Virus record (IMG/VR): IMGVR_UViG_3300025617_001208
Location: 12,885 to 76,884 of that record
Direction: 5' to 3' (one strand)
Source: a virus
DNA length: 64,000 bases
Both the position numbers and the translations under genes were made by a program. Position 1 is the first letter of the stretch. The number at the start of each line of letters is the position of its first letter. The notes below the pieces were generated by a model, which was not told where the DNA came from, did not search any database, and saw only the letters and a list, made by a program, of their open reading frames with translations. Below, piece after piece: positions 1 through 32,449 of this stretch.

Positions 1-240
1 ATGCTCGCAGCCCCAGCCATCGCTTGGCCAATTTCCTTTGAGCATTTTTTCTCTATGTTCTACCCACTTAGGTTCATTGTGAAAATCAAAATTCTCACCT
101 ATCGGAGACATGCCATTTCTATGACAACTACTACTAGTATTATCCCACAAACTTAATGTAACCTGACTCCATTTAAGTAAACAAGCCTTATTGCCTTGAG
201 CCGGAAACCAATCTGGATTTTTCCATTCTTTTTTACTCAT
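1..240 (-). CDS. N-terminal twitch-domain radical SAM protein (5' part only; runs off the window edge)
   Basis: Not in the ORF track. Manual translation from ATG 240: MSKKEWKNPDWFPAQGNKACLLKWSQVTLSLWDNTSSSCHRNG...FHNEPKWVEHREKMLKGNWPSDGWGCEH. This is the same C..KW / SCH / R..ML.G...GC pattern as the N-terminus of 25434..26807. ATGA overlap with the stop of 237..1403. Confidence 0.8.
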   Translation of the reverse strand, partial: MSKKEWKNPDWFPAQGNKACLLKWSQVTLSLWDNTSSSCHRNGMSPIGENFDFHNEPKWVEHREKMLKGNWPSDGWGCEH

Positions 241-1403
241 ATATACTCTCTTAACTTTAATAGTTTTTCATCTTTTTTCTGTGCAGCAATTTTAATAATC
301 CAATTATCTAATTCTAGATTATTTTGCTGTTGTGTTCCTATACGTGCTTGTAATTGTTCAAGCCATTTATATGTGTGATTGTACTGTCCTTGATCTAAAA
401 ACAAGTCTTTATTTTTACGTATTAATTTTAAACATTTTTTAACATGTTTTTTATAAGAGTTATCTAATCGACTTGGGTCAAGTTCGTTTGGCCAATTTAC
501 CCAGTTTCCAAAAATTGCCAGTTTGGTATTTGTTTTTCGTAGTTCAGTAATAGTCCAATCAAAATAATCATACATATGCCTAACTGTAAAAATATTAGGA
601 GTAGGTGCAAGAGTAACATTTACTAATCTTGGATGATTGATATAATCTATAAAATTATTTTGAAAACGTTTCCAATCTAATCCGTATCTCACCGATTCTG
701 CTACAATTCCAGTTGCCTCGTTGCTTATTCCTAAACTTATTCCCCATTTCTCAGGCAAACTATCAAATAAATCAAGTAGTTTTTTTTGATTTTTAGCTGT
801 TGCATTACCGTTAGTGAGTACACTAAAATTTATTCTACTATCGTAAATAGATTCTTTTTGTAATATAAGTTGCATAAACTTATAAAAGTTTTTGCTGTAA
901 CTTATTTCTCCTCCTAAGAAACTTAAAGGTATAAATTCTTGTTTTAATGCTACAGATTCAAACCAGTTAATAAATGTTTGCATGTGTTCTTCATTAGGAA
1001 CATTCATTACATGCTTGTGGCCCAGCTCTTGTGCAATACGACTACTACTAGTTGCATCACAGTATACACATGCCATATCACAAATATTATCAAGTGTAAT
1101 TTCTATGTTGTTGATATTTGTGTTTATACTACTGTTATCAACCCATTTGTTTTTAAAATCTCTATATGCAGTTCCGGTTTCTTTGTAACTATTCCAACAA
1201 AACTTACAAGCAGGATTTTCTACCCCGGACATTAAGTCTTTCCTAAGAGATTGTATGTGTGTGCTATTGTTAAAAAAGTCTATTGTAACATTCTCAGGAA
1301 ATGGTTCACGCTCACTTTTACAACAATGACTTAAAGTCTTTGCACCAAAGTCTACGTTTATATCATACCATGCAGCACTGCACAATGTTTTATTTAATGC
1401 CAT
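237..1403 (-). CDS. radical SAM protein with N-terminal twitch (half-SPASM) domain
   Basis: CxxxCxxC motif CDMACVYC and LGGE motif; N-terminal C..AW...HCC...CKFCW auxiliary-cluster cysteines. Confidence 0.9.
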   Translation of the reverse strand: MALNKTLCSAAWYDINVDFGAKTLSHCCKSEREPFPENVTIDFFNNSTHIQSLRKDLMSGVENPACKFCWNSYKETGTAYRDFKNKWVDNSSINTNINNIEITLDNICDMACVYCDATSSSRIAQELGHKHVMNVPNEEHMQTFINWFESVALKQEFIPLSFLGGEISYSKNFYKFMQLILQKESIYDSRINFSVLTNGNATAKNQKKLLDLFDSLPEKWGISLGISNEATGIVAESVRYGLDWKRFQNNFIDYINHPRLVNVTLAPTPNIFTVRHMYDYFDWTITELRKTNTKLAIFGNWVNWPNELDPSRLDNSYKKHVKKCLKLIRKNKDLFLDQGQYNHTYKWLEQLQARIGTQQQNNLELDNWIIKIAAQKKDEKLLKLREYI

Positions 1404-2380
1404 ATTATGTATGACCCTATATTTTCTTGATTTGATTTGTGATAACTATTATCAGCAGGAATATCTTTTTGATCTTGTATCCTTGGATCAAAATAACTTG
1501 TTGCATCTTCGTCTTTATAACCTAACCCTAATAGTACTTGTACTTTATGCCCTGGACGGCCTAACGATTCGCTTATGTTAGTAGGTTCTTGTATACATGC
1601 ACAATATCCAGTACTTAAACCTCTAGCTTGTGCATTCCATATAATAAAACTGCTTGCAATACCTATTTCTATCATCGATTCCTGCACAGCATTATCATCT
1701 GGATTGTGCGAAATACGAGGAGTAAATGCAAACAAATACGGTGCAAGAACCTGAGGATTTCCAAAATCTGTTTTTGCATCGTGTTTAGGTTCTCTCCAGC
1801 ACCATTCAAATATATCATGACGTAAATCTTTATTTTTCCAATCTAGTACATCTAAATAATAAGGTGCCCTGTTCTGTTTACTTGGAGCATACATATGCAA
1901 ATCTAATAAAATGTCTTCTACTGTCTCTTGAGATACTTTTTTATTACTCCAGGTAAATGTTGTCTTACGTTCCTTTATTAAATCACTAAAGTTTCTAGTA
2001 TAATTTGCTTCTTCAAGTTTTACAAAATTATCTTTTAGTAATTGCATTGCTTCTATCATAATTTCAACATCTGTTCTATGATGTTTTAGTAGCTTGTATA
2101 ATTCGCCTTCGATATAGGCATAGGTAGCCAGTTCTACTTTGTGATCATATAATACTAACTTTTTATTTTTTACAAATTTATGAGAAATCTCTTTAATACA
2201 ATTTGCATCTTCGTGCAAAATACATCTAGCAAGTCCCCACAAAATATATTTTAAATCACGTTTGCATCTATAATGATCTCTAGTTCGCTGCATTGGAAAT
2301 TTTGTCTTTACAAAATTCATTCCCCATTCAGAGATTTCATCTATTCGTTTGTGTAATATATGGTAACCAACTAAGCTCAT
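1394..2380 (-). CDS. nitroreductase-family flavoprotein with N-terminal globin/phycobiliprotein-like helical domain
   Basis: The C-terminal ~200 aa carry nitroreductase motifs (IKERKT, APSKQN, EIGIAS...AQARGLSTGYCAC, LLGLGY). The N-terminus contains CKRDLKYIL. GGAG RBS upstream. Confidence 0.8.
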   Translation of the reverse strand: MSLVGYHILHKRIDEISEWGMNFVKTKFPMQRTRDHYRCKRDLKYILWGLARCILHEDANCIKEISHKFVKNKKLVLYDHKVELATYAYIEGELYKLLKHHRTDVEIMIEAMQLLKDNFVKLEEANYTRNFSDLIKERKTTFTWSNKKVSQETVEDILLDLHMYAPSKQNRAPYYLDVLDWKNKDLRHDIFEWCWREPKHDAKTDFGNPQVLAPYLFAFTPRISHNPDDNAVQESMIEIGIASSFIIWNAQARGLSTGYCACIQEPTNISESLGRPGHKVQVLLGLGYKDEDATSYFDPRIQDQKDIPADNSYHKSNQENIGSYIIWH

Positions 2381-2398
2381 ATTTTTATATCTCCAAAG

Positions 2399-2414
2399 TA
2401 TTTAGCACTAAATA
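2399..2414. promoter_or_regulatory. back-to-back T4-type late promoter cores (TATTTA-gcac-TAAATA)
   Basis: Inverted TAAATA pair in the 63-bp gap between divergent genes 2380(-) and 2444(+). Confidence 0.6.
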
Positions 2415-2443
2415 TACGCATATAATGAAGAAAAGGATTCGAC

Positions 2444-3178
2444 ATGTATACAGTTACAGAATGGGGTGTAAGCAACGAACCACCTGAAATATTTGCAGAT
2501 AGAAATAAGTATCCAGCAAAGCCAAAATACCCACAAGATTTAAAAAGCTCACGTGATATACACATGAGTGACCAATTAGATTATTTGCCTATTGTAGGAT
2601 TTGAAGATGCCGAATGGGAGAAGATGTTACAAGAAGCAAAAAATTTAGAAAAACATTATGTTCCGCATAGACATCACGAAAGTCATAGTGGCTGGAGTAG
2701 TTTATGCATACATGGGTTAAGCAGTGTACATACCGAATCTCATCATACATACGGATATACAGATAGAAAGGACGCTCCTTACAAATGGACCGATGTTGCA
2801 GACTGGTGTCCTACAATAAGAGATTTTTTTGAAAACCGGTTTGATTACAATCAATATGACAGAATACGTATTATGAAACTATCTCCAGGAGGATGGATTA
2901 TACCACATAGAGATAGTGTAACACTTGACGAAAATCATATAGGTCCTACTAATATTGCATTAAACAACCCAGAAGACTGTCACTTTTATATGGATAACAT
3001 TGGATATTTGCCATGGGAACAAGGACGCATTATTAAATTAAATTTGTATAATTTGCATTGTGTATACAACTGGAGCAACGAAGATAGATATCATATTATT
3101 GCTCACGGCAGACTAGGAGACGGCTGGAACAAACGTATTGAAGATAGTTATCATCACTGGAGAAAAATTTATGTATAA
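2444..3178 (+). CDS. aspartyl/asparaginyl beta-hydroxylase-like Fe(II)/2OG oxygenase
   Basis: RIRIMKLSPGGWIIPHRD (HxD) ... HCVYNWSNEDRYHII (distal His plus 2OG-binding Arg). Confidence 0.85.
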   Translation: MYTVTEWGVSNEPPEIFADRNKYPAKPKYPQDLKSSRDIHMSDQLDYLPIVGFEDAEWEKMLQEAKNLEKHYVPHRHHESHSGWSSLCIHGLSSVHTESHHTYGYTDRKDAPYKWTDVADWCPTIRDFFENRFDYNQYDRIRIMKLSPGGWIIPHRDSVTLDENHIGPTNIALNNPEDCHFYMDNIGYLPWEQGRIIKLNLYNLHCVYNWSNEDRYHIIAHGRLGDGWNKRIEDSYHHWRKIYV

Positions 3179-4460
3179 CATACAACATGCCGTTGTTGTA
3201 CCAAAAAATGTAAAAGAAAACATTAATCGAGATTTATATCAAAGTTGGATGTTGTATTATCAACGTGGACACTATGTAAAACAAAGCGTTGAACAGCATC
3301 CATTTGTGTGGGCAGAAACAGTTGACGATATATTATCAATTGTTTCTCCTAAAAAAACTGAATATTTAATTGTAACTTGGTTTGGGATATATAATCACGA
3401 CTTTTGGAATGTTCATACACTGTGTATAAAAGACATACAAGATCAAAAAACAGAGTGGAACGTATTGCACAGCAATAACACACCAACAATACAAATTGTT
3501 AATTTAAAAAGATGGAGAGAACAAGGCCAGCCGGCATTTGCAGATTACATAAAAACAAATAGTAAAAAAATTAATCCTGCTATTTCTACAAGTTTACTAG
3601 ATTCCGAAGCAACACAAAATCCACAAGCATGGAGCGACGAATTAAATCATTTTACCAAACTACCTATTATCAATACAAATCTTACTGAGCTACTTGTTAA
3701 ACTTCTTACAACACGAAATCCAAGGCATGCTAACAACCACGACAAGGGTGTGTTTTTCTTATATAATACAGAAGCTATATGTACGGATAAACAACGTCTA
3801 AGGGCGGTACAGGGCGCTATAAACACGGTTATAGGCCCTTGTAGTATGTTTAAAGCATTTATATTAGGTAGTAAATATATAGACAATGTTGATAACTATT
3901 TACACTTTGATATATTTGATCGTAATTTACAATGGAAAAAACTTATTACTGAAAATTGGGACGGTACTAAAAAAGGATTAACTAAAACACTATCACTTTG
4001 TGCAGATGAAGGAGATGGCGATTTTAGCTTTTGGAATAATAGCAATGAAAACATTATTGAAAAGCAGTGGAATGTACTATTAAACGAATTAGGAAGTAAG
4101 GAACAAATACTTAGAGCATGGAATATTTACAAAACAAAAAATCATGCATATGCATTAAGTAATATGTTGTTTGACGATAACGAAATTATAAACAAGTTAG
4201 AACAATTTAATATTACAGGAATATATCATGCAATAGGAGATATACCCGGTTTTAGAAGTAATGCATTACAGTTTGGATTACAACAAATAAATCAATTAAC
4301 TAAAAGTCATCTAACTAGAGTTGCTAAAATAAATAACAATCTTTATGCAGATATAAAAGTTCCTGCGTCAGATTTACAAAAGTTTAAAAAATACAACGAA
4401 ATCATTGACGATTTACAAAACGATTATAACGAATTTTCGTTCGAAGAGTATTCAGAATAA
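3171..4460 (+). CDS. hypothetical protein, paralog of 12165..13526
   Basis: 429-aa ORF; ATG 3171 overlaps the upstream stop (ATGTATAA). Shares FxxYNT[ED] and D...WDG motifs with 12165..13526. Confidence 0.75.
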   Translation: MYNIQHAVVVPKNVKENINRDLYQSWMLYYQRGHYVKQSVEQHPFVWAETVDDILSIVSPKKTEYLIVTWFGIYNHDFWNVHTLCIKDIQDQKTEWNVLHSNNTPTIQIVNLKRWREQGQPAFADYIKTNSKKINPAISTSLLDSEATQNPQAWSDELNHFTKLPIINTNLTELLVKLLTTRNPRHANNHDKGVFFLYNTEAICTDKQRLRAVQGAINTVIGPCSMFKAFILGSKYIDNVDNYLHFDIFDRNLQWKKLITENWDGTKKGLTKTLSLCADEGDGDFSFWNNSNENIIEKQWNVLLNELGSKEQILRAWNIYKTKNHAYALSNMLFDDNEIINKLEQFNITGIYHAIGDIPGFRSNALQFGLQQINQLTKSHLTRVAKINNNLYADIKVPASDLQKFKKYNEIIDDLQNDYNEFSFEEYSE

Positions 4461-5665
4461 TTATCAAACAAATTAGTGCCGTGATAGTTATCTAATGCGG
4501 CACTATAATCTAAAAATATCTGCCACTTATTGTTTCTATCTTCACTGTTCATATAATTTAGTGTATTAGTAGCAAATTTTTTAATTCTATCTAATTGTTT
4601 TTGAGGTTTTACCTTATTACTTACACTTTTTATATATTCTTCAGCTTCGTTATTGTACCATACCCAAAATTCTTCTGTAATTGAGTCCTTTAAATGCTGA
4701 GGTAATAGTTTAATGTTTAATGCTTCAGGATATTGTACTAAACTTGAATGAAAATATACATCCAAACTACAAAAATACTTTACAATATTGGTAAATCTAG
4801 TTATATTATATAAATTTACTGTGCAGGTTGCACTAATATCAGTATTTGTTAATGTACTATTTAAAATTTTAATATTTTCTTCTACTTTGTCTAAGTTTCC
4901 TGCGGCTCGTACATACTCATAGCAACTTGGATCGCCGTCTATACTTACACGCAACCATATTTCTTTAAAATTTTTCCATAAATCTAATACACTTTTACCT
5001 TTGTATTCTAAAATATTTAAATTTGTATTATAACTTAATCTAATATTTTTTGCATAAGGTTGCATATCTTCTAAGAATTTGTAATGTTTGTCATGATACA
5101 ACGGCTCGCCACCAGCAATCATTATTTCTTCTAAGTTTGGAGCAAGTTCATTTGCTATTTCGTCTACCATTTCTTGTGTTAAACTAACATGTTTAATATC
5201 TTTTCTGTATGTACCGTATTCTACCATTTTATCAAGTAGTGCCGAATCACGTTTTACAGCTTGTTCCCATACACTACTAAAGTCTGGACTACAATGTCTA
5301 CACATAAGATTACATATATTATCAAATCGTATTTCTACACTTCTAATATATTTTGTAGGAAAACTGTAATCACTTCCGACGTTTTCTTTAACAAACTTTT
5401 CGTTAACATAAGGAAAAGTTTGACTACATTGCTGTCTAGTACTAACACTACCACTTTTTTCCATATCCCAGCAACTACGACAACCGTTATTTTGTACTCC
5501 ATTTAACAAGTCATTTCTAACTTGTTTTACTTCATTACCGTTCCATATGTCTTGTAATTTTTGTGTACGATAATCACCAAGTTTGTCAGGAAATCTCCAA
5601 CAAGCACTAACTTTGCCTTCTTGTTTAATATTAAGATGTGTAAAAGGCATGGGACAAAATGTCAT
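4424..5665 (-). CDS. radical SAM protein with N-terminal twitch domain
   Basis: CNLMCRHC, AGGEP, YNTN, VSIDG; N-terminal FCPMPF...ACW...GCRSCW. Confidence 0.92.
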   Translation of the reverse strand: MTFCPMPFTHLNIKQEGKVSACWRFPDKLGDYRTQKLQDIWNGNEVKQVRNDLLNGVQNNGCRSCWDMEKSGSVSTRQQCSQTFPYVNEKFVKENVGSDYSFPTKYIRSVEIRFDNICNLMCRHCSPDFSSVWEQAVKRDSALLDKMVEYGTYRKDIKHVSLTQEMVDEIANELAPNLEEIMIAGGEPLYHDKHYKFLEDMQPYAKNIRLSYNTNLNILEYKGKSVLDLWKNFKEIWLRVSIDGDPSCYEYVRAAGNLDKVEENIKILNSTLTNTDISATCTVNLYNITRFTNIVKYFCSLDVYFHSSLVQYPEALNIKLLPQHLKDSITEEFWVWYNNEAEEYIKSVSNKVKPQKQLDRIKKFATNTLNYMNSEDRNNKWQIFLDYSAALDNYHGTNLFDNYSEYSSNENSL

Positions 5666-7026
5666 TGTATTTTTCCTTTATAATCTACGTAATCCTTTAT
5701 TTGTTCCCAAAGCTCGGGCAAAGATTCTTGTATTTTTTGATTGCGCAGTTTATCAACATCGGCACTATATTCAACAAAGTCTTGTAAACTATTATTTGTA
5801 TTTTTTGAAAAACTACTTATAATATGTTTAATCATGTATCTAAAACGTACAAATATTTCATACTCGTCTAGATTATCAACACGTTTAGAATGCTTTTTAA
5901 TAATTTCTTCTAGCTGATCAATAACTTCTTGCTTTTGCGGTAACATTGTACTTGTTAAATAATTAGGTGTTTGCAACATTGTAGGACTAAATCTTGCTAT
6001 TTCATATATGTAACTAATGTCTGTACCGTGTTTGTTTTTGCGAATATACTTAGAATATAAATCATTGTCTACAATAAATTTTTTACCGTATAATTCTTCT
6101 TGTAAATTTTCCCACCAGTTCCACATTTTTGGTAATTGTAAAATATTATACAAACTAATAGTTGGAGAAAATACAATATCAAAGTTTTTATATTCTTTTG
6201 CTAAACTTAGCCATTTTTTAGCACTTTCTTCAACAGTATGCCATTTACTCGGATAACGTATATAATCATTAACTTCATCTAATCCGTCAATACTTAAATA
6301 AATTTGTACTAACCCAAATTGTTTTAACCTATCAATTATTTTTGACTTAGGAACCCAACTACAATTAGTATATATTTGTAGCATAATATTATCTGTATGT
6401 CCACTTTCAATAACCTTGTCTATAAAAGGAATAAATGTAGGAACAATCATAGGCTCGCCGCCGGTCATTTTTATTAACTGTGTTTCTTTAAAATCATCCG
6501 CAGTAAAGTTCAAATCTAACACTTGCGGACGTTTACTAAAATCAAACCTATCTTTGTAATGTTCTGCTAATACTTTGTCATCTGCATCCCACGTTGTACT
6601 TAAATCACTACTACACATTCTACATGCAAGATTGCAGTATCTACCTGTTGTTAGTTCTAAGTATTTAAAACTGAGCTGTTGATTAACATCGATAGGCCTA
6701 AATTCGTTTTGCTCATTCCATGCATTATTAGCATTAAACCTCATACTAAATTTGTCGCCGGCGTCTTCTTTGTCGCACTTGTAACACCCAGGAATTGTTT
6801 TTCCTTTAAGCATATCGGTACGTAAGTCATTCCAAAAATCACTTTCCATTATTTCTTTAAATGATTTTTCTTTTACATTATACTGAGACATTATAGGATT
6901 GCCTTTTTCGTCTCTGTATGCTTCATTCATATGATCAAACCGACAACAAGGCTTTGCTTGCCCATTGGGTTTTAGTTGCATGTGTATCCATGGATATATG
7001 CAAAAACTATTTTTTACTACTGTCAT
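5662..7026 (-). CDS. radical SAM protein with N-terminal twitch domain
   Basis: CNLACRMC, TGGEP, LSIDG, YIRYP; N-terminal FCIYPW...PCC...GCYKC. Confidence 0.92.
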   Translation of the reverse strand: MTVVKNSFCIYPWIHMQLKPNGQAKPCCRFDHMNEAYRDEKGNPIMSQYNVKEKSFKEIMESDFWNDLRTDMLKGKTIPGCYKCDKEDAGDKFSMRFNANNAWNEQNEFRPIDVNQQLSFKYLELTTGRYCNLACRMCSSDLSTTWDADDKVLAEHYKDRFDFSKRPQVLDLNFTADDFKETQLIKMTGGEPMIVPTFIPFIDKVIESGHTDNIMLQIYTNCSWVPKSKIIDRLKQFGLVQIYLSIDGLDEVNDYIRYPSKWHTVEESAKKWLSLAKEYKNFDIVFSPTISLYNILQLPKMWNWWENLQEELYGKKFIVDNDLYSKYIRKNKHGTDISYIYEIARFSPTMLQTPNYLTSTMLPQKQEVIDQLEEIIKKHSKRVDNLDEYEIFVRFRYMIKHIISSFSKNTNNSLQDFVEYSADVDKLRNQKIQESLPELWEQIKDYVDYKGKIQ

Positions 7027-12137: not shown

Positions 12138-12141
12138 ACTA

Positions 12142-12147: not shown

Positions 12148-12164
12148 TTCCGTTAACTACGTAC

Positions 12165-19139: not shown

Positions 19140-19140
19140 C

Positions 19141-19156: not shown

Positions 19157-19192
19157 TCCTGTGTTCAACTATAATTGACAAATACAAAATTT

Positions 19193-20797: not shown

Positions 20798-20806
20798 GAG
20801 AAAAGA

Positions 20807-22135: not shown

Positions 22136-22150
22136 TTTTCATGCTATAGT
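22122..22150 (+). promoter_or_regulatory. sigma70-type promoter TTGACT-N17-TATAGT with extended -10 (TGc)
   Basis: -35 at 22122-22127, -10 at 22145-22150, ATG 22157 six nt later; no SD. Confidence 0.6.
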
Positions 22151-22156
22151 AAAAGC

Positions 22157-24158: not shown

Positions 24159-24763
24159 CAACGTGGAATCTCGAAATATACAACAAATCACAAGATTTAA
24201 CAGAATTTTTTCTAGCAGCAAAAGAAAAAGGATTTTACAATAATAGCAGTATCAATATGCTGCACGATTACATTGACAAATCCGAAGAAACAAAAATGTG
24301 GTTATTAAGCAACAACAACAGATATGTAGGCACTATTGTAAGCCATAGTTTAAATGAATTAGGAATTTTAGGCAACGGTGCTTGGAGGATTTGTGCTAGA
24401 ATATGCGTTCTAAGTCATTTAATCGAAGGACCTAGAAAACATTTGACGCTACGCAATGAATTACGAAATAAAACTCCACATGACCATGTAGGTGGACAAT
24501 TTTTAATTCCTGCTTGTATAGAATATATAGGAAGAGATAAGCCTATGTACATTAGCACAAATGACAGTGTAGTAGGAAAACAACGAGCTGTTCACACAAG
24601 ATGGGCGCCTGCTTGGAACAAATTAGGGTTTTTAGGCGACCCATTTGAAATCGAATATCGCGGTAAATTTCAAAAGTTTTGGAAGTTTAATGTAGATGCT
24701 TACTATAAACAAATGGCAACTGAACGCTGGCCCGAAGCAGAAGCAATATTACCTCTGTTTTAA
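24155..24763 (+). CDS. hypothetical protein (possibly GNAT-like fold)
   Basis: 202 aa; the pattern WLL..NN..VG....H...WRI..R.C..L resembles a GNAT core, but weakly. Confidence 0.55.
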   Translation: MTTWNLEIYNKSQDLTEFFLAAKEKGFYNNSSINMLHDYIDKSEETKMWLLSNNNRYVGTIVSHSLNELGILGNGAWRICARICVLSHLIEGPRKHLTLRNELRNKTPHDHVGGQFLIPACIEYIGRDKPMYISTNDSVVGKQRAVHTRWAPAWNKLGFLGDPFEIEYRGKFQKFWKFNVDAYYKQMATERWPEAEAILPLF

Positions 24764-25441
24764 AAACATTTTGTGAGCTTTTTCTCTAAAGGTGTATTTT
24801 TCTTCAAACAGATCTTCCCAGTTATCTGGTAAGTCGAAATTTACACCTAAGTAATAATCTTTATATTTTTTATAACTTTTGTCTAGTAAGCCAACGTAAT
24901 TTTTATCGTTATAATTACCATCCCACGGTGCGCCTAGTGCAAGTGTAAATTTAGTATCACCCGAGGTGTTGTGCATTTCGTGAGGCCATTTACCGCTCAT
25001 CATAAACGGTTTGTCTACAGTAGTAGGACGTACACTTGTGTCTTTACCAATAAAATCTAAGTCGTCGACATTACCTTGTAGAACATATCTAAACTTGTGC
25101 TGAGGAGTATCAAACATTTCTGGACTACAATCAATATGCAAAGGATTTTTTGTACCGTTAGGAGTAGTAATAATCATTATCCTACTACGTTCTTTTGTAA
25201 TTTGAAATAACACATCCTCGCACCATTGTTTTAACTTGGGCATTTGGAATGCCCACGGCATCCACTGGAATTCGTCTTTTTTAGTTGGATTATACATAAT
25301 AGGAACATGATAACAGTTCCTATAGTCGTCTTGATATATTTTACTAACATCCAAACTATTTAAATAATCCATGTGATCCAATGGAGGATTTTCAATGTCT
25401 AGAGGCAAATATAATAAGTTGTCAAATTGATTTTTATCCAT
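24749..25441 (-). CDS. Asp/Asn beta-hydroxylase-like Fe(II)/2OG oxygenase
   Basis: SRIMIITTPNGTKNPLHIDC (HxD) ... WPHEMHN..GDTKFTL. Start refined to ATG 25441. Confidence 0.7.
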   Translation of the reverse strand: MDKNQFDNLLYLPLDIENPPLDHMDYLNSLDVSKIYQDDYRNCYHVPIMYNPTKKDEFQWMPWAFQMPKLKQWCEDVLFQITKERSRIMIITTPNGTKNPLHIDCSPEMFDTPQHKFRYVLQGNVDDLDFIGKDTSVRPTTVDKPFMMSGKWPHEMHNTSGDTKFTLALGAPWDGNYNDKNYVGLLDKSYKKYKDYYLGVNFDLPDNWEDLFEEKYTFREKAHKMFLKQR

Positions 25442-26807
25442 CTGTATCTTTACAAGTTTCAAAGAAGTTTGCCATTTCCGGAAATGCTTCTTTAAAATTT
25501 GTATTCCTTCTTTTGTCCTGTTCGTTAAAGAAACGCCAAAAATCAATACGTCCTTGCATTACTTTTGCAGGATCATATGTTGTACTATCCATATAATCAA
25601 CTACTCTTCTAAAACGTTCGTACTCCATTGTTGTAAATGCATCTTTACGTTTGTCATCTAAATTATCTTTTATAAACTGTAAGTGGCTGTGCATATACTT
25701 CATATACTCTTGCGGTAAAATGTTAATATCATACTGCAACGGTTCTTTTAAGTAAGGAGTATCGAAACTCAATCGATTCCATCTATATGTTTCTACATTG
25801 TTGTATTTACGGCGCCATTCAAGTATTTTTTCTAATAATGTTTGAAATGTTGTTACACTGAAAATATTAAATGTAATCATAATAGTTACAGGTGCATTAG
25901 TATTAGTCATGAAGTAATCTAAGTTACGCTCAAAAGTTTCAATGTCTAATCCATTACGGATATACTCGGCTCTTTCGCCCCATGTATCAATACTAGTAAA
26001 CAATTTAAATCTACGTATTTTGTTTTGACTAAGCAGGCTGTTTACAGAATCAGTAAACTTTTCTAATTGTTTAGGTTTGCCGCCTAAATTGCTGTTTACA
26101 TTTAATTCTAAGTTTGGCTTAGGATCATTTTCAAGCAAATCAAATAACTTGTATGTGCTTTTTTGTATAGTAGGTTCTCCGCCTGTAATACGTAAAATTG
26201 TTAGATCTTTACTAAGTTCTGGCCACCAACGCCAAAATGCATCTAAATATGGATTATTGTCTTCTTCGTAAATCTGAAACCAATCAATGTCGCAACGATG
26301 ATTACGTACAGTTGTATAAGGACCGTACTGTTTAATTTCGTTGTAATATCTACTACTAGCTTTTGGATGACAATATCCACAACGAAAGTTGCACTCGTTA
26401 CCAAATGAAACTTCTAAGTATTCTGGATTAACATTAAACTCTGCGCCGCCTGTTTTAACTGCATCAAGTCTTTCTTCGTTGTAAATACTGCTACTACGGG
26501 TTTTACGATCGCTAATATAATCTTCGCCCATATTTTCAATATTCCAACAATACTGGCATCCCTTAGGTTGTTCTCCACGCATCATTGCAGCACGTTCTTG
26601 TTTCTTTTGTGCTGTATTGTGTATAGCACTAGGATTAGTTAATAACGGTGCTGTGTCAATCTTGTGAGGAGCCGGATGATAACAACTGTGTGTTTCACCT
26701 GTTTGAAAATAGATGTTTGCGTGATACCATTTTGCAAAACAAAAAGTAGGAGATATTTCTTTGTCTGTATATTTTGTTATACGGACTGCTTCATCCCTTT
26801 CACTCAT
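25434..26807 (-). CDS. radical SAM protein with N-terminal twitch domain
   Basis: CNFRCGYC, TGGEP, NSN, TSID, EYIR; N-terminal FCFAKW...HSCYHP...GCQYCW. Confidence 0.92.
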   Translation of the reverse strand: MSERDEAVRITKYTDKEISPTFCFAKWYHANIYFQTGETHSCYHPAPHKIDTAPLLTNPSAIHNTAQKKQERAAMMRGEQPKGCQYCWNIENMGEDYISDRKTRSSSIYNEERLDAVKTGGAEFNVNPEYLEVSFGNECNFRCGYCHPKASSRYYNEIKQYGPYTTVRNHRCDIDWFQIYEEDNNPYLDAFWRWWPELSKDLTILRITGGEPTIQKSTYKLFDLLENDPKPNLELNVNSNLGGKPKQLEKFTDSVNSLLSQNKIRRFKLFTSIDTWGERAEYIRNGLDIETFERNLDYFMTNTNAPVTIMITFNIFSVTTFQTLLEKILEWRRKYNNVETYRWNRLSFDTPYLKEPLQYDINILPQEYMKYMHSHLQFIKDNLDDKRKDAFTTMEYERFRRVVDYMDSTTYDPAKVMQGRIDFWRFFNEQDKRRNTNFKEAFPEMANFFETCKDTDG

Positions 26808-27724
26808 TTAAGTTCCTTGTCAATAAACTTAGGATTACGCACAGGATTTTGATACACTGTTTTAAAAAATTTACTTTGATCTGCATTTAAACATTCAACA
26901 GAAATAGGCGCTTGTAATTCATGCATTAATGTATCTCCAATTTCCTCGCTTTCGGTATCCATTTCAGATTCTGACATGTCGTTGCTGTTCCAGTAATTAT
27001 TAAGCCACTCAAAGTCTCGAACGTTGATAAAGTCCCAATCGGTTAGCATAGTTTTATACAACCCTTCTCTAGCACCGTAAATAGCCCAACGACCATTTTC
27101 TGCATCAGCGCCTACCATTAGCCAGATCCAAAGTCTATGCAAGTTTTTCCAATGATTACGTTTAAAATCTTCAATGTTTGGCCTAATACCTTGATCTAGT
27201 GCCATTTTAACACCTTCACGAAATCCAGCACGCCACGCTTGTTGCGGTGTTGCATTATTGTAGATATCACTAAATGTTCCATTCATTTGAATGTATTGTA
27301 AATCCCAACAAAAGTCTACTTGCGCATGTAGGTTGTCTGGATCAGCATTTTCATGTGTACGCATGTTTAACACTTTTTCTTTAGGCCAGCACTTGATACC
27401 GCCATTGCCATATGCTAGACCGTTGATCTGATTTAGTGCAGTCCAACTAATAACTTTATCAGTTAAATCATACTCGCTTAAATCTGCTTCTTGGCTTAAG
27501 AATGTTTCTCGAATTCTATTATCACCATCGATAGTAATAAAGCGATCGGTCTCACTGGCATTAGCAGCAGCTTTGTGTGCAGCATCGCTGCCCTTAACAC
27601 CATGCACACGTTTAGCCCAAGGAACTTTAGTAAGCAAATCTGCATAATTTTGTTCTGCATTAGGTTCGTCATAACTTAAATAAATTATGTCATGATCAAC
27701 TACTCTAAAAATATTATCAGTCAT
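26804..27724 (-). CDS. GT-A fold (GT2-like) glycosyltransferase
   Basis: DIIYLSYDEPNA, HGVKGSDAAHKAAA, ITIDGD (DxD), YGNGGIKCWP, AGFREGVK. Confidence 0.7.
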   Translation of the reverse strand: MTDNIFRVVDHDIIYLSYDEPNAEQNYADLLTKVPWAKRVHGVKGSDAAHKAAANASETDRFITIDGDNRIRETFLSQEADLSEYDLTDKVISWTALNQINGLAYGNGGIKCWPKEKVLNMRTHENADPDNLHAQVDFCWDLQYIQMNGTFSDIYNNATPQQAWRAGFREGVKMALDQGIRPNIEDFKRNHWKNLHRLWIWLMVGADAENGRWAIYGAREGLYKTMLTDWDFINVRDFEWLNNYWNSNDMSESEMDTESEEIGDTLMHELQAPISVECLNADQSKFFKTVYQNPVRNPKFIDKELK

Positions 27725-28292
27725 TTATTACCTCGTGTGAATATGATCCAAACTTTTTAATAGTATAAACGCTTATAGGCATTTTGTCAAACTTAAAATT
27801 ACTTGGGTAATCTACATAAAAATTGTTGCTCTTACTATCAGCTACAAAATTTAAAATGTAATGAAGATTATAAGGATTATCTTTATCTGTTATGCTAAAA
27901 CCGCTAATTGCATTTGTTAAATTTACTTTGTGTTCTTGAATATTACTTTCTAGTTCATTATTAAATTTTAATTCCCAGCGCTTTTTAACATTGTTTTGTA
28001 TTAGTGTAACATCAGGATCTTCATCAGATTCTATTTTATATAAAAAACTTTTAGATGTACGTGCTTGTTCCCATTCTTTATTATGTTTAAGCATGTAGCC
28101 TTTTGTTGGCAAATCATACTCAACTGTATATTCGTGAATAGGAACAATTCCTTTTATAATGTCTTCAATTTCATTTATGTTTACTTTAATAAAATTTAAA
28201 CTATCATCGTGCTGGCTTTTAATAGATACTATAGTACCATTATTGTCAAACATAATATATTTTTTTGCATTAGAACTAATTTTAATAGGCAT
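27717..28292 (-). CDS. hypothetical protein
   Basis: 191-aa ORF in a tightly packed operon. Confidence 0.7.
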   Translation of the reverse strand: MPIKISSNAKKYIMFDNNGTIVSIKSQHDDSLNFIKVNINEIEDIIKGIVPIHEYTVEYDLPTKGYMLKHNKEWEQARTSKSFLYKIESDEDPDVTLIQNNVKKRWELKFNNELESNIQEHKVNLTNAISGFSITDKDNPYNLHYILNFVADSKSNNFYVDYPSNFKFDKMPISVYTIKKFGSYSHEVIND

Positions 28293-28294: not shown

Positions 28295-29137
28295 TTATAT
28301 TCCTAATTTATTTTCATATTTTTTGATTATATCAGAACTTAAAAAGTCCTTTTCAGTATAATGAAATATACCGCTTTGTTTATAGTTACCTACAAATAAT
28401 TCTAGATCATCACTTAGATAAACGCTTAAACGAGATTGCCAACTTTGATCTTTATACTTATTCCAATGTTGGACTTTTGGTTTCATATGTGTAAACGTAG
28501 GAAAATTATGTTTTGTAGTTATATTGTGTTCACAATCCATAATTTTAGCTGCAATTGCCGCAGTTAAATCCATACTACATGTTTTTTGAAAGGTTTTACC
28601 ACCTGCATGATGTTTATAGAAAAGTTGCCAATTATTTGTTATCATTTCCATCCATGCATAAAATTCTTTAGCTAACGGACGTTCTTTAAAATAATGAAAT
28701 CCGCTATACAAATTTGGTAGGTTATATGTAGTAAACGCTCTTCGATAATAATCGTTTGTTACTAACTCTCCCCTATATGTATAAACATTGTTAGTGTAAA
28801 ACAAATCATAATTTTTTAATAAATCAAACCATTTGGTTAAGTCTTGCAAAACTAACATGTCTGTATCAAGTACTACAGTTTCGTTAAACGGAGTTGCGTG
28901 ATATAATTTCCAACGATTACTGATTTTCCAATCTTCGTCTTCGGCATGATCGCCCCATGGAATTTCTATAATATATTCAAATAGATGTTTATACTTTTCT
29001 GGTACTGTATCGTTAGTTATAAGTGCTATTTTACTATTAGAATTTGTAGCATGAATACTCATTGCACAAACACATGCTTGTAAAACATAATCATCTGTGT
29101 TGTTATTTTGGGCAAGTAACGTAAAGTTTTTATTCAT
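28295..29137 (-). CDS. GT-A fold glycosyltransferase (GT8/nucleotide-diphospho-sugar transferase-like)
   Basis: Y...A...A.SI, TPFNETVVLDTDML (DxD), YSG..YFK, FTHMK. Confidence 0.72.
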   Translation of the reverse strand: MNKNFTLLAQNNNTDDYVLQACVCAMSIHATNSNSKIALITNDTVPEKYKHLFEYIIEIPWGDHAEDEDWKISNRWKLYHATPFNETVVLDTDMLVLQDLTKWFDLLKNYDLFYTNNVYTYRGELVTNDYYRRAFTTYNLPNLYSGFHYFKERPLAKEFYAWMEMITNNWQLFYKHHAGGKTFQKTCSMDLTAAIAAKIMDCEHNITTKHNFPTFTHMKPKVQHWNKYKDQSWQSRLSVYLSDDLELFVGNYKQSGIFHYTEKDFLSSDIIKKYENKLGI

Positions 29138-29954
29138 CTATCATTCTTTCCAAACTAAATTTATTCATAACATGTACATTTTGATTTTTAGTTTTAACAC
29201 CTGTATATTCACCTAAGTGCTGCTCTTTTTCTAAAAGAAACAAAAGTTCGTCATTGTTTATTTTTTCTAAAATATCCCTATCAGTAATAAAATATTTTTT
29301 ACCAGGCAAATTTGAAATTTGAGAATCTCCGGTAAACCCATTTAAAATATGTGCAGCAATACTAAATGCAAAATCGTTTCTATACAAAGGATTTACAATT
29401 TGATAAAGACTTGTATAGTGCGAGTAGTTTTCTTTTACATGTTTTATTAAATCAAAAAATATTTTATTTTTATTACACTTTTTAAAGTATACAACTGTAG
29501 CCCAATAAAAGTTAATACCAGTATCATTAATTTTATCAAATTCTATAAGATTTCGCCAATGACACAAATCAACTGCATCACTATACATCATTAGATCTTG
29601 ATTGCTATCAAAACAACTTTTTAAATGATCGTTACAAATTACATAATCGGTATCCATAACAATTGTTTCTTCAAACGGTGATAAATCATATGCATTGCAT
29701 CTATCCAAGTTGTTAAAATTTGCTAATTTTGTAGCCATATTACCATCGCGAAACTTTCTGGAATTTGCATTATTACTAGGTTCCAATTTAATAACATGAT
29801 CAAAAAAATCAAGTCTGTTGTCATTGATCTTGTCAGTTGCTATGGCAACAGGAACATTTAAATGTTTTTTTACCCGTTTAGCACAAAATATAGCTTGTTT
29901 GATATAATCTAATGCTTTGTTGTCTTTAGCAAAAAGTAATACGCCTTTGCTCAT
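29130..29954 (-). CDS. GT-A fold glycosyltransferase, paralog of 28295..29137
   Basis: SPFEETIVMDTDYV (DxD), WATVVYFKK, RNDFAFSIA, HVMNK. Confidence 0.72.
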   Translation of the reverse strand: MSKGVLLFAKDNKALDYIKQAIFCAKRVKKHLNVPVAIATDKINDNRLDFFDHVIKLEPSNNANSRKFRDGNMATKLANFNNLDRCNAYDLSPFEETIVMDTDYVICNDHLKSCFDSNQDLMMYSDAVDLCHWRNLIEFDKINDTGINFYWATVVYFKKCNKNKIFFDLIKHVKENYSHYTSLYQIVNPLYRNDFAFSIAAHILNGFTGDSQISNLPGKKYFITDRDILEKINNDELLFLLEKEQHLGEYTGVKTKNQNVHVMNKFSLERMIDE

Positions 29955-30298
29955 AAATCTAGTATACCTTTAACACTTCTATTCTTTTTTATTTTACTGT
30001 ATTCTACAAAATATTCATTTGATGCTGTAAAGTATACATCGAGTATGCTGTTGTAAAATTCTTCTATGTTTGAAATTTCAATTGGAATATCATTATCGTC
30101 GCTGATAATTACTGACTGTTGATCACTGTCAATTAAACCTTTAATAAAATTAATTAGCTCTCGCGAAACTGTAAAAGTTGCGCCGTTAAAATAATATACA
30201 AGATTTTCGTGATATTTTTCTTTTAAAATACGTGTTTGATTGTTTAATGTAACCATATAGTTACTAATATCTAATGCTTTTTCTAGACGCTCGTCCAT
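29951..30298 (-). CDS. hypothetical protein (first gene of the glycosyltransferase operon)
   Basis: 115 aa, AGGAG RBS, ATGA overlap with the next gene. Confidence 0.75.
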   Translation of the reverse strand: MDERLEKALDISNYMVTLNNQTRILKEKYHENLVYYFNGATFTVSRELINFIKGLIDSDQQSVIISDDNDIPIEISNIEEFYNSILDVYFTASNEYFVEYSKIKKNRSVKGILDL

Positions 30299-30360: not shown

Positions 30361-31413
30361 TTATGCTACACTAGGTTGATTTTCACTTGCACCCGGTCTC
30401 ATTAGATTACCACCTAATGTAAAGTCAGTATCTGTAGTACCATCATTTAGTGTAATAGTACTATCAGGGTAATACTGAGTACCCGAAATAGTTACATTAG
30501 CAGTTACAGGTTCATCTATTGGAGTACTTTGAGGACCGTCAGCAGGATTGCCTGTGCCTGTATCGTTATCAAGCAGTCTTACTTGTAAAGTTACACGACT
30601 AAATCCGTTAATAACTGCTAATCGTACTTGAATTTCGTTATCATTATAAATGCTTCCTGCACCAATTTTTGTGTACTTAGTGGTCATAGCTATACCTGTA
30701 GTAAGAGTAGGAATGGCTGTAACCGAGCCTGTTCCGCTACTATTTAAACTTTCCACTACCCATTCCCAACCAGTACCTGCAGTATCAGGACGAGCATATA
30801 GTCTTACTGTACCCATATTTGATGCCATTGTTTGCCAGTTTAAGTTTTTTTCATAACTAGCCTGTCCCGGACTACCAATGGCATCAATATCAACATTAAT
30901 ACGTAGTTCGCCGCCAGCTGTAAAATATTCTTCAAATGACTGATCAGAGGGAAATGTGTAAACAACACTACCGGATATAACATTCCATTGAGCAGTAACT
31001 TCATCTAGTGTATTCACAACAGTACTAAAATCTCCACCAAATTCTGTTGTACGTCTGTCAAATCCTGCACAAGTATTTGCTAAATCATATAAACCTTGTA
31101 CATTAGCAGCATCTCCCCAGTCTGCCCATTCAATTACTTCGCCAACTTGTAAATCGGAATATGTAGTGCCACTTGCTAATGTTTTAACTGCACCTGTTTG
31201 ATGGTAGTGTATTAACTGACCAATACTAAACAGTTTTTCAACATCTGCTGATAACACTGTATCACTAGTATTTGGGTCGCTTCCTCCAACAACAGCACTA
31301 GGAATTGCATCATTAACTGTTCCAAACCCATATTTGCCCGGCCCAAAATTATTTTCCAATATACTTCTAATATTGTTAAAGTCAGTTGCTGATATTGCGC
31401 TGCCTACAGCCAT
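30361..31413 (-). CDS. virion structural protein (tail/fibre associated), paralog of 32414..33310
   Basis: Shares F..GG.., K...W..M..N.GTV, G.G.IY..N and P.DE.V motifs with 32414..33310; GGAG RBS and upstream TAAATA. Confidence 0.65.
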   Translation of the reverse strand: MAVGSAISATDFNNIRSILENNFGPGKYGFGTVNDAIPSAVVGGSDPNTSDTVLSADVEKLFSIGQLIHYHQTGAVKTLASGTTYSDLQVGEVIEWADWGDAANVQGLYDLANTCAGFDRRTTEFGGDFSTVVNTLDEVTAQWNVISGSVVYTFPSDQSFEEYFTAGGELRINVDIDAIGSPGQASYEKNLNWQTMASNMGTVRLYARPDTAGTGWEWVVESLNSSGTGSVTAIPTLTTGIAMTTKYTKIGAGSIYNDNEIQVRLAVINGFSRVTLQVRLLDNDTGTGNPADGPQSTPIDEPVTANVTISGTQYYPDSTITLNDGTTDTDFTLGGNLMRPGASENQPSVA

Positions 31414-31447
31414 GCGAGATCTCCATGTTTATTATAATACTATACTT

Positions 31448-31479
31448 TATTTATCAGTGTTTTGTCAACCGATTAAATA
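31448..31479. promoter_or_regulatory. divergent late promoter cores: TAAATA on minus (31448-31453) and on plus (31474-31479)
   Basis: Both lie in the 70-bp gap between 31413(-) and 31484(+); the plus copy is 4 nt from the ATG. Confidence 0.55.
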
Positions 31480-31483
31480 CTAC

Positions 31484-32449
31484 ATGGAACGTTTTAATTA
31501 TGCAGAACAACGAAATTATGTTTACATAGATTGGGATATGAGTAGTAGGTGCAATTATGCATGTGCATATTGCGAACCTGCTGCACACGACGGAAAGTTT
31601 GATTTTCCTACTATAGAAAATGCAAAACTATTAGTAGATAAAATTTCAAAAACATATACTGATAAGTTTGCAGTTTTTAATTTATTTGGAGGAGAGCCTA
31701 CTATATGGAGAGAAATTCCTGCATTTTTTAAATATGTTAAAAAATCAAATCCAAACAACAAAGTACAGTTATTAACAAATGGTAACAAAACAAAACGCTG
31801 GTGGCAAAAAAATCAAAACAATATAGATAGCGTTGTTGTCAGTGTACATGTAGCACAAGTAGATATTGTAGATCTTGTTGAAAAATTTAATGCGTGTGCA
31901 GGAAGTTTTGACATACACTTTCAAATTTGTATTGATATAAATCACTTTGAAACTGCTATGCAACAATACGATTACTGTTTAAAAAATTTAGACAAACATA
32001 TTAGATTAGATTACAAGCCTTTACGAATTAGCTTGGATAAACCAGAATCTATGCCTTACACAAATTTTCAAATTAATACAATGAAAAAATTAAAAAAACT
32101 GCCTGGTATTAAAAAAGACCATTACGGAAGTAGTATGGTTGATGAAAATAATAACCTAGTGGATCTGCAAAAATTATTATTAGAGAAAAATAATAAATTT
32201 AAAAATTGGGCATGTTGGATAGGAATAGACACATTAAATATTACACGTGAAGGAAATGTTACAATAGGTAGTCAGTGTTTTCCTAATTTTGTATTAGGCA
32301 ATATTCACACGTTAGATTTTGAAATTCCATACAAGCCTGTAAAATGTCAATACGAATACTGTAGCTGTTTAACTGATCTTACAACTAAAAAAATAAAAAA
32401 TTATTCTGGAGATTTATTGGAAGACTTGAATATTTTGGTAAGCCGGTGA
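31484..32449 (+). CDS. radical SAM protein with C-terminal Cys-rich twitch domain
   Basis: CNYACAYC, FGGEPT, TNG, SVH; C-terminal CWIG...SQC...CQYEYCSCLTD. Start refined to ATG 31484. Confidence 0.9.
   Translation: MERFNYAEQRNYVYIDWDMSSRCNYACAYCEPAAHDGKFDFPTIENAKLLVDKISKTYTDKFAVFNLFGGEPTIWREIPAFFKYVKKSNPNNKVQLLTNGNKTKRWWQKNQNNIDSVVVSVHVAQVDIVDLVEKFNACAGSFDIHFQICIDINHFETAMQQYDYCLKNLDKHIRLDYKPLRISLDKPESMPYTNFQINTMKKLKKLPGIKKDHYGSSMVDENNNLVDLQKLLLEKNNKFKNWACWIGIDTLNITREGNVTIGSQCFPNFVLGNIHTLDFEIPYKPVKCQYEYCSCLTDLTTKKIKNYSGDLLEDLNILVSR

Follow-up and report, generated by a model that had tools for sequence, protein, structure and literature searches.

A 64,000-nucleotide stretch of viral DNA (the window), corresponding to positions 12885-76884 of the linear 76,884-bp IMG/VR contig IMGVR_UViG_3300025617_001208 (CheckV completeness 21%), carries an island of radical S-adenosylmethionine (SAM) genes beside a tail-fibre module. 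The full island spans 37.8 kb and holds 15 radical SAM genes with an intact CxxxCxxC motif among approximately 41 tightly packed genes. An earlier note, made from the letters of the window, had counted 13 radical SAM genes, twelve with an intact motif and one truncated by the window edge, and had described the island as open on its left side. The open reading frame (ORF) list, Pfam, NCBIfam and a motif scan all agree on that count, and the island does continue 5.3 kb beyond the left edge, to contig position 7553, with two further radical SAM genes, an Asp/Asn hydroxylase, a nitroreductase and a 2-oxoglutarate (2OG)-like gene in the extension. The close packing that the note remarked on extends throughout, with just five gaps of more than 30 nt (34, 63, 217, 70 and 62 nt), of which the 217-nt gap is occupied by a 72-aa ORF. 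Plain coordinates refer to the window, and coordinates prefixed L001 to the numbering of the whole contig.

Enzymes of the island

The radical SAM genes were compared with PF04055 (gathering score 29.5 bits) and with the N-terminal-twitch (N-twitch) model NF033640, N_Twi_rSAM (curated cut-off 170 bits), and fall into 8 N-twitch genes, 4 genes of a second family, 1 B12-binding gene and 2 others. By the motif scan, CxxxCxxC is intact in 12 genes of the window and in 15 of the contig.

1-240, minus strand: radical SAM N-terminus, 80 aa of a 422-aa N-twitch gene (whole gene L001:11856-13124); NF033640 257 bits; full-length ORF with CxxxCxxC at residue 132
237-1403, minus strand: N-twitch-type radical SAM, 388 aa; PF04055 31 bits; NF033640 167.5-167.9 bits against the cut-off of 170
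4424-5665, minus strand: N-twitch radical SAM; NF033640 309 bits; SPASM-type domain N-terminal
5662-7026, minus strand: N-twitch radical SAM; NF033640 296 bits; SPASM-type domain N-terminal
7007-8047, minus strand: second-family radical SAM; PF04055 47.8 bits; C-terminal PCC...CxxxC domain; GxxGDP instead of GGE
9422-10735, minus strand: N-twitch radical SAM; NF033640 368 bits; 50% identical to a Bdellovibrionales gene
10728-12137, minus strand: N-twitch radical SAM assigned to the core, the most conserved gene of the island; NF033640 424 bits
13523-14590, minus strand: second-family radical SAM; PF04055 33.4 bits; aligned with its paralogs
14532-15546, minus strand: split radical SAM in two overlapping genes, a 241-aa catalytic core (14821-15546) and a 98-aa Cys-rich C-terminal domain (14532-14828)
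15543-16640, minus strand: second-family radical SAM assigned to the core; ortholog in 73 of 80 relatives
19175-20797, plus strand: B12-binding radical SAM (Pfam)
25434-26807, minus strand: N-twitch radical SAM; NF033640 319 bits; PF04055 26.1 bits
31334-32449, plus strand: radical SAM; PF04055 41.7 bits; listed start TTG, start codon uncertain
L001:8787-9920: radical SAM; NF033640 161 bits, below the cut-off of 170
L001:10685-11821: radical SAM assigned to the core

In this profile comparison, which the earlier note had proposed, ten of the 12 window genes pass the PF04055 cut-off, those below it being 14821-15546 (25.0 bits) and 25434-26807 (26.1 bits), and six N-twitch paralogs pass that of NF033640 (257-424 bits), with two slightly below. 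Four cysteines N-terminal to the CxxxCxxC core (C12, C30, C93 and C96) are invariant in all 8 N-twitch paralogs, and a Pfam SPASM match covers residues 4-97 in three N_Twi members. The motif GGE[PSI] occurs in the N-twitch group and in two other genes, its place is taken by GxxGDP in 7007, 13523, 14821 and 15543, and no GGE-type SAM-binding motif was found in the B12-binding gene 19175-20797. Among NCBIfam and PDB entries, the closest relatives are for the most part enzymes of peptide maturation, such as SkfB, PapB, StsB and YhhB, with BlsE among the weak matches, and a PDB sequence search with L001:10685-11821 returned nothing significant. No paper on the substrate or function of the N_Twi family was found in the literature on the 'N-terminal twitch', nor was one found that links radical SAM enzymes with nonulosonic acid. 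The 98-aa ORF 14532-14828 aligns to the C...PCC...CxxxC C-terminal domain of its paralogs, and the division of 14532-15546 is a natural split into two genes whose parts remain fused in three paralogs. The TTG start listed for 31334-32449, a gene with no ortholog at 50% identity or above among the relatives, overlaps the divergent gene 30361-31413 together with its promoter-like motif at 31448-31455, and the true start probably lies further downstream.

Interspersed with these genes are candidate glycosyltransferases (GTs), a predicted methyltransferase and a set of redox enzymes, including iron/2-oxoglutarate (Fe/2OG) oxygenases and a protein resembling short-chain dehydrogenases/reductases (SDRs).

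18073-19104, minus strand: GT2-like GT-A candidate; 33% identical to its paralog 26804-27724; DGD motif; fusion partner in relatives
26804-27724, minus strand: GT2-like GT-A candidate; AlphaFold2 pLDDT 69; Atlas lead to a 'Glycosyltransferase 2-like' cluster
28295-29137 and 29130-29954, minus strand: GT8-like (glycogenin-like) GT-A candidate pair; weak profile match
17199-18092, minus strand: class I SAM-methyltransferase-fold protein assigned to the core; AlphaFold2 pLDDT 85, pTM 0.86
2444-3178, plus strand: Asp/Asn beta-hydroxylase-family Fe/2OG oxygenase (Asp_Arg_Hydrox); PF05118, E 1.5e-9
22795-23862, plus strand: TauD-family oxygenase; above the Pfam cut-off
8047-8883, minus strand: probable Fe/2OG oxygenase, DUF6445-like; HxD motif; nearest named Atlas clusters DUF6445/2OG, score 0.93-0.96
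24749-25546, minus strand: possible Fe/2OG oxygenase, called from its HxD...H motif only; included in the 8047-family alignment; no family match
8868-9425, minus strand: short SDR-like Rossmann protein; Gly-rich N-terminal motif and YxxxK
1394-2380, minus strand: nitroreductase-family protein; PF00881, E 2.3e-7; extra N-terminal helical domain of ~125 aa

The four DxD-bearing GT-A enzymes described in the earlier note receive uneven support: the DxD motif is invariant in the families aligned, one pair appears GT2-like at fold level, the GT8-like pair is weak, and none of the four candidates has a Pfam match at E<0.01. Within the GT2-like family, DGD (D66, D68) is invariant in an alignment of six sequences, and no PDB profile match was obtained. 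A Foldseek search with the model of 26804-27724 returned top matches that were almost all GT-A/GT2 proteins (WrtF, TarP, BcsA and SunS), with E of 1.6e-4 to 2e-3 and a probability of ~1, yet a TM score of just 0.3-0.37. Orthologs of this gene that are 70% identical occur in G001 (146 kb) and G003 (106 kb), two of the long relatives, and in both of these the GT8-like pair is conserved beside the fibre genes. A profile of that pair against the PDB (E up to 1) gave 19 matches, all to glycogenin, over the DxD-bearing region and with a best E of 1.4e-3; D91 and D93 are invariant in its family.

For the methyltransferase 17199-18092, which the earlier note had also named, the class I fold is modelled with confidence. 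At least 500 Foldseek matches at E<0.001 were obtained, the top-listed ones nearly all SAM methyltransferases, with spermidine and nicotianamine synthases also among the fold matches; the SAM-binding loop reads GGWYG/AGWYG, a variant of GxGxG, and the gene is regarded as a predicted SAM methyltransferase. Its family had 84 ORF matches in the 88 loci searched, and a PDB sequence search gave no significant match. At two related loci, single ORFs (L037:2823-6206, 1127 aa, and L042:1234-4467, 1077 aa) have the arrangement GT-GT-linker-methyltransferase, in which the linker matches the helical N-terminal segment of the methyltransferase family 3-7 times, with partial overlap between the matches; the window counterparts are three separate genes. 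Through this fusion, glycosyl transfer is linked to the conserved core that is shared with bacteria. A metagenome contig from run X4 has an apparent joint from 18312 to 26990 that joins both GT2-like paralogs and skips 8.7 kb (the plus-strand cassette and radical SAM gene 25434-26807); its support is thin, with 24 letters on the shorter side, and it is consistent with relatives whose two GTs are adjacent or fused.

The claim of four Fe/2OG oxygenases stands at the Pfam cut-off for 2444-3178 and 22795-23862 and at motif level for 8047-8883 and 24749-25546. The HxD motif is invariant in seven aligned members of the 8047 family, including 24749-25546 and its relative; 8047-8883 has no Pfam match and its family no significant PDB sequence match. 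Similarly, the SDR assignment retains its Gly-rich and YxxxK motifs, but the best PDB match, although an SDR, is non-significant (E 0.13). The nitroreductase named in the earlier note lies above the PF00881 cut-off, and a second one, L001:7553-8221, is without the N-terminal helical domain of the first.

Conservation, fibre linkage and bacterial counterparts

The host genome is that of an abundant, uncultured marine jumbo myovirus of ~350 kb, of the Rak2/GAP32/PA5oct type. This size is implied by the CheckV values of the contig and of its long relatives. Radical SAM gene 10728-12137 is also found on contigs of 322-353 kb, and the Gp23-type capsid protein of the relatives shares 70-78% identity with its counterparts in Phosso, Vibrio phage 2.275.O, PA5oct, GAP32, CBB and similar phages. 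Cultured members searched had 0-4 radical SAM genes each, the matches in Vibrio phage K566 and Ralstonia phage RsoM2USA lie in neighbourhoods annotated as hypothetical proteins only, and a megablast of window positions 1-20000 against the phage collection gave no match. Homologs of 10728-12137 number more than 3,500, the 120 listed being 79-88% identical and including Tara records. A relative of the gene is encoded at 232 IMG/VR loci, of which 80 (82-92% identical) were kept, and the island is present on over 230 IMG/VR contigs. The same genotype is tiled by contigs of four other marine runs with 0-2 mismatches per piece, apart from one piece with 41.

Across these 80 relatives, orthologs (at least 50% identity, 70% coverage) were found for 10728-12137 in 80, 15543-16640 in 73, 18073-19104 in 41, 8868-9425 in 30, L001:10685-11821 in 28 and 26804-27724 in 26, with most of the remaining island genes having orthologs in fewer than 10. 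The dN/dS values of the core genes are 0.06-0.18, with 0.06 for 10728-12137, so that the core is under purifying selection. The island is of a biosynthetic type, as the earlier note had supposed. Its conserved core comprises the radical SAM genes L001:10685-11821, 15543-16640, 10728-12137 and 25434-26807, the methyltransferase 17199-18092, the GT2-like genes 18073-19104 and 26804-27724 and the GT8-like pair 28295-29954. The core is surrounded by swappable cassettes of further radical SAM genes, Fe/2OG oxygenases, nitroreductases, the SDR and the B12-binding radical SAM. Metagenome contig depth is highest on the core genes, the pattern predicted for co-occurring strains with a common core and different cassettes.

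The structural genes to the right of the island and those within it, together with the module at its left boundary, are as follows.

32414-39314, minus strand: tail-fibre module of a 300-aa fibre-like protein, three paralogous fibres (one with Collar) and a 201-aa protein
39344-63481, minus strand: giant 4529-aa protein (CBM_5_12, FG-GAP), then baseplate genes gp25, gp5/VgrG-like and gp53-like (Pfam)
30361-31413, minus strand: fibre-like structural protein; late-promoter-like GATAAATA 41 nt upstream
20807-22135, plus strand: Gly/Val/Asn/Thr-repeat fibre-like protein; C-terminus resembles the Mtd_N fibre L001:6055-7536
L001:2041-4511: left boundary, MoxR-type AAA ATPase and DUF2201 metallopeptidase/VWA protein (CobS/CobT-like pair); conserved in relatives

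Linkage to the tail genes proved to be fixed within this lineage when synteny was surveyed in relatives, as the earlier note had suggested doing. A core radical SAM gene and the fibre-module gene 38709-39314 lie on one contig in 28 of the 35 long relatives, and are 16-30 kb apart in the eight relatives for which the distance was worked out. The latter gene, which encodes the 201-aa protein, is 70-81% identical in 27 of the 35 and 38% identical in one more. G001 and G003 have the same gene order, namely the MoxR-AAA/DUF2201 module, the island, the GTs, the fibres, the giant protein and lastly the baseplate, and in G003 a CTP_transf_3 gene sits between two core radical SAM genes. Pfam matches in the fibre module are to Collar and, weakly, to Peptidase_G2; the N-terminus and a later motif of 30361-31413 resemble the fibre-like protein 32414-33316 by eye, with no BLAST match between the two. 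Within the cassette, the B12-binding radical SAM gene 19175-20797 ends 9 nt ahead of the fibre-like gene 20807-22135. The 4529-aa ORF itself occupies 39344-52933, is preceded by the conserved 201-aa gene, and is possibly a VrlC-like giant baseplate/fibre protein of the kind found in marine T4-like phages.

The sequence ATAAATA occurs 19 times, and 10 of these occurrences are 8-45 nt upstream of gene starts on the same strand, in the form GATAAATA or, more broadly, NATAAATA. This is probably the late-promoter motif of the lineage. The starts that it precedes belong to fibre genes, one baseplate-region gene and four island genes, namely the B12-binding radical SAM, the Gly-repeat fibre, 10728-12137 and the left-hand nitroreductase.

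Counterparts of the core were identified on bacterial chromosomes in a scan of species-representative genomes. Four Bdellovibrionales metagenome-assembled genomes (MAGs) of roughly 3 Mb have 13-14 N_Twi matches each, mostly within one 30-40-kb region, and the clusters hold 11-17 radical SAM genes in 30-40 kb (sites G006:C15:171-213 kb and G008:C80:36-70 kb; L106-L111). In the one genome examined for it, the cluster adjoins rpoD, dnaG, yqeY and a deaminase gene. Identity to the bacterial homolog is 66-68% for L001:10685-11821, 61% for 10728-12137, 50% for 9422-10735, 44-47% for 15543-16640, 40% for the SDR 8868-9425 and 36-40% for the Asp/Asn hydroxylase 2444-3178. The bacterial homologs of 15543-16640 adjoin that of L001:10685-11821, and the methyltransferase family matches the bacterial cluster at E 1e-51, where its homolog lies divergently beside a core radical SAM gene. 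Depending on the genome, the clusters also contain NeuB, a CTP_transf_3 CMP-sugar synthetase, a NodU/CmcH carbamoyltransferase, GH114 and a large membrane protein. The phage baseplate protein has no match anywhere in the four Bdellovibrionales genomes, and the flagellin genes of these MAGs are on contigs other than that of the cluster. More widely, N_Twi genes are present in 46 of 201 sampled Bdellovibrionota genomes, often in at least 8 copies, and no paper describing Bdellovibrionota N_Twi radical SAM super-clusters was found.

Possible function of the island

The gene content, its conservation, the linkage to the fibre module, the bacterial homology, the folds and the fusion are shown by the data, and the sugar substrate, the chemistry and the acceptor are inferred. 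The explanation tentatively favoured here is that this is an accessory enzyme island of the host-recognition (tail-fibre) region, in which a carbohydrate is tailored stepwise and the product transferred by the GT-A enzymes, the fibres being the most plausible acceptor. The substrate would be a nucleotide-activated sugar or a growing glycan, from which the radical SAM enzymes would abstract hydrogen to epimerise, oxidise, deoxygenate or C-methylate it; the oxygenases would hydroxylate and the methyltransferase would methylate, and the GT-A enzymes would pass the product to an acceptor, which in the phage would most plausibly be cytoplasmic, its own fibre proteins being an example. The lean towards carbohydrate comes from the GT-A folds, the GT-GT-methyltransferase fusion and the bacterial NeuB, CMP-sugar synthetase and carbamoyltransferase. 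A cytoplasmic acceptor is the most plausible because the island genes include no flippase, polymerase, ligase or transporter and just one membrane protein (99 aa, single-pass), and because fibre genes carry the late-promoter-like motifs; the pattern of motifs would be in keeping with genes expressed late and an acceptor in the cytoplasm, the fibres for instance.

Several observations weigh against this explanation. There is no N_Twi enzyme with a known substrate, so the sugar substrate rests on association, and SPASM-type radical SAM enzymes usually modify peptides. The GT calls are weak (no Pfam match, TM ~0.33, E 1.4e-3), and the bacterial clusters contain no homolog of the phage GT families. 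NeuB (2 of 4 genomes) and CTP_transf_3 are variable parts of those clusters; on the phage side, CTP_transf_3 is rare (3 of 35 relatives), NeuB was not found in five long relatives, and no nucleotide-sugar synthesis pathway was found in the phage contigs searched, which covered 11-41% of the genome. Beside the bacterial clusters lie an M16 (PqqF-like) peptidase and a nitroreductase, an arrangement that fits a peptide substrate. Further, the presence of the core in Bdellovibrionota that have no match to the phage baseplate protein implies that the pathway is not intrinsically virion-directed and that tail linkage alone cannot prove the target; virion fibres are a plausible candidate for the acceptor. 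A more specific version, in which the phage builds a heavily tailored methylated glycan by means of uncharacterised sugar-acting radical SAM enzymes (N-twitch and GxxGDP) and attaches it to its own fibres, with strains swapping cassettes and the system shared or exchanged with predatory Bdellovibrionota, is doubtful when taken as a whole.

Part of the same evidence could instead reflect direct modification of fibre or virion residues, in the manner of ribosomally synthesised and post-translationally modified peptides (RiPPs), with the radical SAM enzymes, oxygenases and B12-binding radical SAM introducing epimerisation, C-methylation, cross-links or beta-hydroxylation before sugars are added by the GTs. 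The SPASM/twitch-type domains and the mostly peptide-maturase relatives (SkfB, PapB, StsB and YhhB) suit this possibility, as do the scattering of fibre-like genes within the island, the position of the B12-binding radical SAM 9 nt ahead of the Gly/Val/Asn/Thr-repeat gene, the PqqF-like M16 peptidase and nitroreductase beside the bacterial clusters, and the peptide S-glycosyltransferases SunS and ThuS among the Foldseek matches of the GT model; the Asp/Asn beta-hydroxylase and TauD families also serve in RiPP and non-ribosomal peptide tailoring. It is nevertheless judged unlikely. A six-frame scan of the contig gave no ORF with a Cys-repeat, His-x-Ser or Asn-Cys ladder, and there is no PqqD, RiPP recognition element or leader-peptidase Pfam match (E<0.01) among the island ORFs scanned. 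The cassette of B12-binding radical SAM and fibre has orthologs in only 2-4 of the 80 relatives and, being so rare, cannot be the target of the core, which is itself kept in bacteria without a match to the phage baseplate protein; NeuB, CMP-sugar synthetase, carbamoyltransferase and GH114 in those bacteria point to sugars. Remodelling of the host envelope, whereby the sugars of lipopolysaccharide (LPS), capsule or glycoproteins would be altered in the infected cell, for example to block superinfection or tune release, is considered quite unlikely. The homologous bacterial clusters presumably decorate cell-surface glycans, and the same position and mix of fibres, GTs and radical SAM cassettes is found in the host recognition cluster (HRC) of marine T4-like phages, for which LPS roles have been discussed (PMC7029224). 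However, the lack of flippase, polymerase, ligase and transporter in an island with one 99-aa single-pass membrane protein argues against an envelope target, as do a core that is conserved and fixed beside the fibres and the late-promoter-like motifs at some island genes.

The fixed linkage to fibre genes also counts against the idea that infection yields a diffusible compound (a small molecule or a cofactor, for instance one like an aminoglycoside or nucleoside), as do the absence of an exporter or resistance gene from the island and the four GT-A candidates and GT-GT-methyltransferase fusion, which suggest a polymer or macromolecular acceptor. This reading is improbable, despite a combination of radical SAM, SDR, methyltransferase, oxygenase and carbamoyltransferase that resembles aminoglycoside and nucleoside clusters (BtrN, BlsE and TobZ), and the presence of BlsE among the weak matches. 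The least likely of the rivals, and highly improbable, is hypermodification of phage DNA bases. Phage hypermodification clusters can contain radical SAM enzymes, GTs and oxygenases, and weak QueC-like matches were obtained in 13 of the 36 records searched (the contig and its 35 relatives). However, the contig itself has no QueC match, the oxygenases fall into Asp_Arg_Hydrox and TauD, with no match to TET/JBP-type DNA-base dioxygenases, no kinase, hydroxymethylase or DpdA was recognised, and the core is common to bacterial chromosomal loci that hold sugar genes. The earlier note had likewise recognised no DNA-modification hallmarks, and no such family is among the Pfam matches; FolE, QueD, QueE and DpdA are absent from the general Pfam matches, although these families were not searched one by one.

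Known systems and minor features

Phage islands with multiple radical SAM genes are known in kind. The T4-like Campylobacter phages CP220 and CPt10, described in 2010, have 11-12 radical SAM genes of function not known, including one five-gene block described as an interchangeable module (PMC2853527), and the statement of the earlier note that well-studied phages carry only one or a few such genes is therefore wrong, its argument from rarity being overstated. Similarity to these phages is weak (23% identity over approximately half of 15543-16640 or L001:10685-11821), and in CP220, which is of another lineage and host, the genes are dispersed over the genome, with no description of an island that unites them with GTs and fibres. 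Similar in layout is the HRC of pelagimyophages and cyanomyophages (Zaragoza-Solas et al., PMC7029224; radical SAM cassettes were noted in that of pelagimyophages in 2020), which is also a hypervariable island of fibres, GTs and radical SAM cassettes in the structural region beside a giant baseplate protein. The present phage differs in belonging to the Rak2/GAP32-type jumbo group rather than to the pelagimyophages and cyanomyophages (PMP/CMP), and its radical SAM load is far larger; the HRC is bounded by VrlC and the neck gene gp14, whereas here the far boundary is the MoxR-AAA/DUF2201 (CobS/CobT-like) module. N_Twi is already catalogued in NCBIfam, and the six paralogs above its cut-off and four invariant N-terminal cysteines ahead of the CxxxCxxC core match that family; here it is expanded to eight copies in one phage and combined with a second radical SAM family (GxxGDP). 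The Bdellovibrionota clusters share homologs of the core radical SAM genes, the methyltransferase, the SDR and the Asp/Asn hydroxylase, but are chromosomal, contain sugar genes and a large membrane protein, and lack the phage GT families.

In mycobacteriophage capsid and tail glycosylation and in the fibril glycans of Mimivirus, viral GTs and sugar-tailoring genes decorate the particle, which is the kind of role that the earlier note proposed for the island. These systems use conventional nucleotide-sugar enzymes, and we know of no radical SAM array in them; no virion glycan has been observed for the system described here. BtrN, NeoN, AprD4 and BlsE, whose auxiliary domain is C-terminal, are twitch/SPASM radical SAM enzymes with an auxiliary cluster that act on sugars or nucleoside sugars. 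Their similarity to the island genes is marginal and does not establish orthology. The distinctive features of the present island are its 15 radical SAM genes in 38 kb, the defined core, the GT-GT-methyltransferase fusion and the bacterial counterpart, the last of which makes the function testable and may offer a culturable route. The lineage is common in marine metagenomes, and its largest accessory region represents chemistry without an assignment. A function for the N_Twi and GxxGDP enzymes would open new radical reactions, most likely on sugars, and would account for a hypervariable region with a probable role in the host range or defence evasion of ocean phages, as well as the Bdellovibrionota radical SAM clusters.

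The remaining island features are mostly variable or small.

3138-4460, plus strand: 440-aa protein of a variable cassette; ortholog in 2 of 80 relatives
12165-13583, minus strand: 472-aa protein of a variable cassette; 26% identical to an ORF in the Bdellovibrionales cluster
16628-17198, minus strand: two small ORFs of 117 aa and 72 aa; no family match, no Cys
16982-17198, minus strand: the 72-aa ORF, unlisted; overlaps the start of the next gene (ATGGAATGA); no Cys, no family match
19175-24763, plus strand: variable cassette; orthologs in 0-9 of 80 relatives
27717-28292, minus strand: 191-aa protein; no family match
29951-30298, minus strand: small conserved 115-aa protein; same-position orthologs in G001 and G003, 42-53% identical

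The protein of 3138-4460 has no match in Pfam, PHROG or PDB, that of 12165-13583 neither a family nor a PDB match, and PHROGs gave nothing useful for 20 unassigned ORFs. Three lineage records with a core radical SAM 82-83% identical (L098, L099 and G010) are binned in Flavobacteriales MAGs (Arcticimaribacter and Crocinitomicaceae), and three contigs of G010 have the phage baseplate gene; the binning is either a weak hint to the host or a binning artefact. Single-copy N_Twi genes of Flavobacteriales had no conserved neighbourhood across the eight loci compared. The plus-strand cassette 19175-24763 encodes, in order, the B12-binding radical SAM, the Gly-repeat fibre-like protein, an uncharacterised gene, the TauD oxygenase, the 99-aa membrane protein and a second uncharacterised gene, and GATAAATA lies ~25 nt upstream of each of the first two. 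Sites of GATAAATA are at window positions 19149, 20782, 31448 and 56400 and at L001 positions 1069, 6012 and 8229, and TATAAATA is depleted, with 3 occurrences observed against 16 expected.

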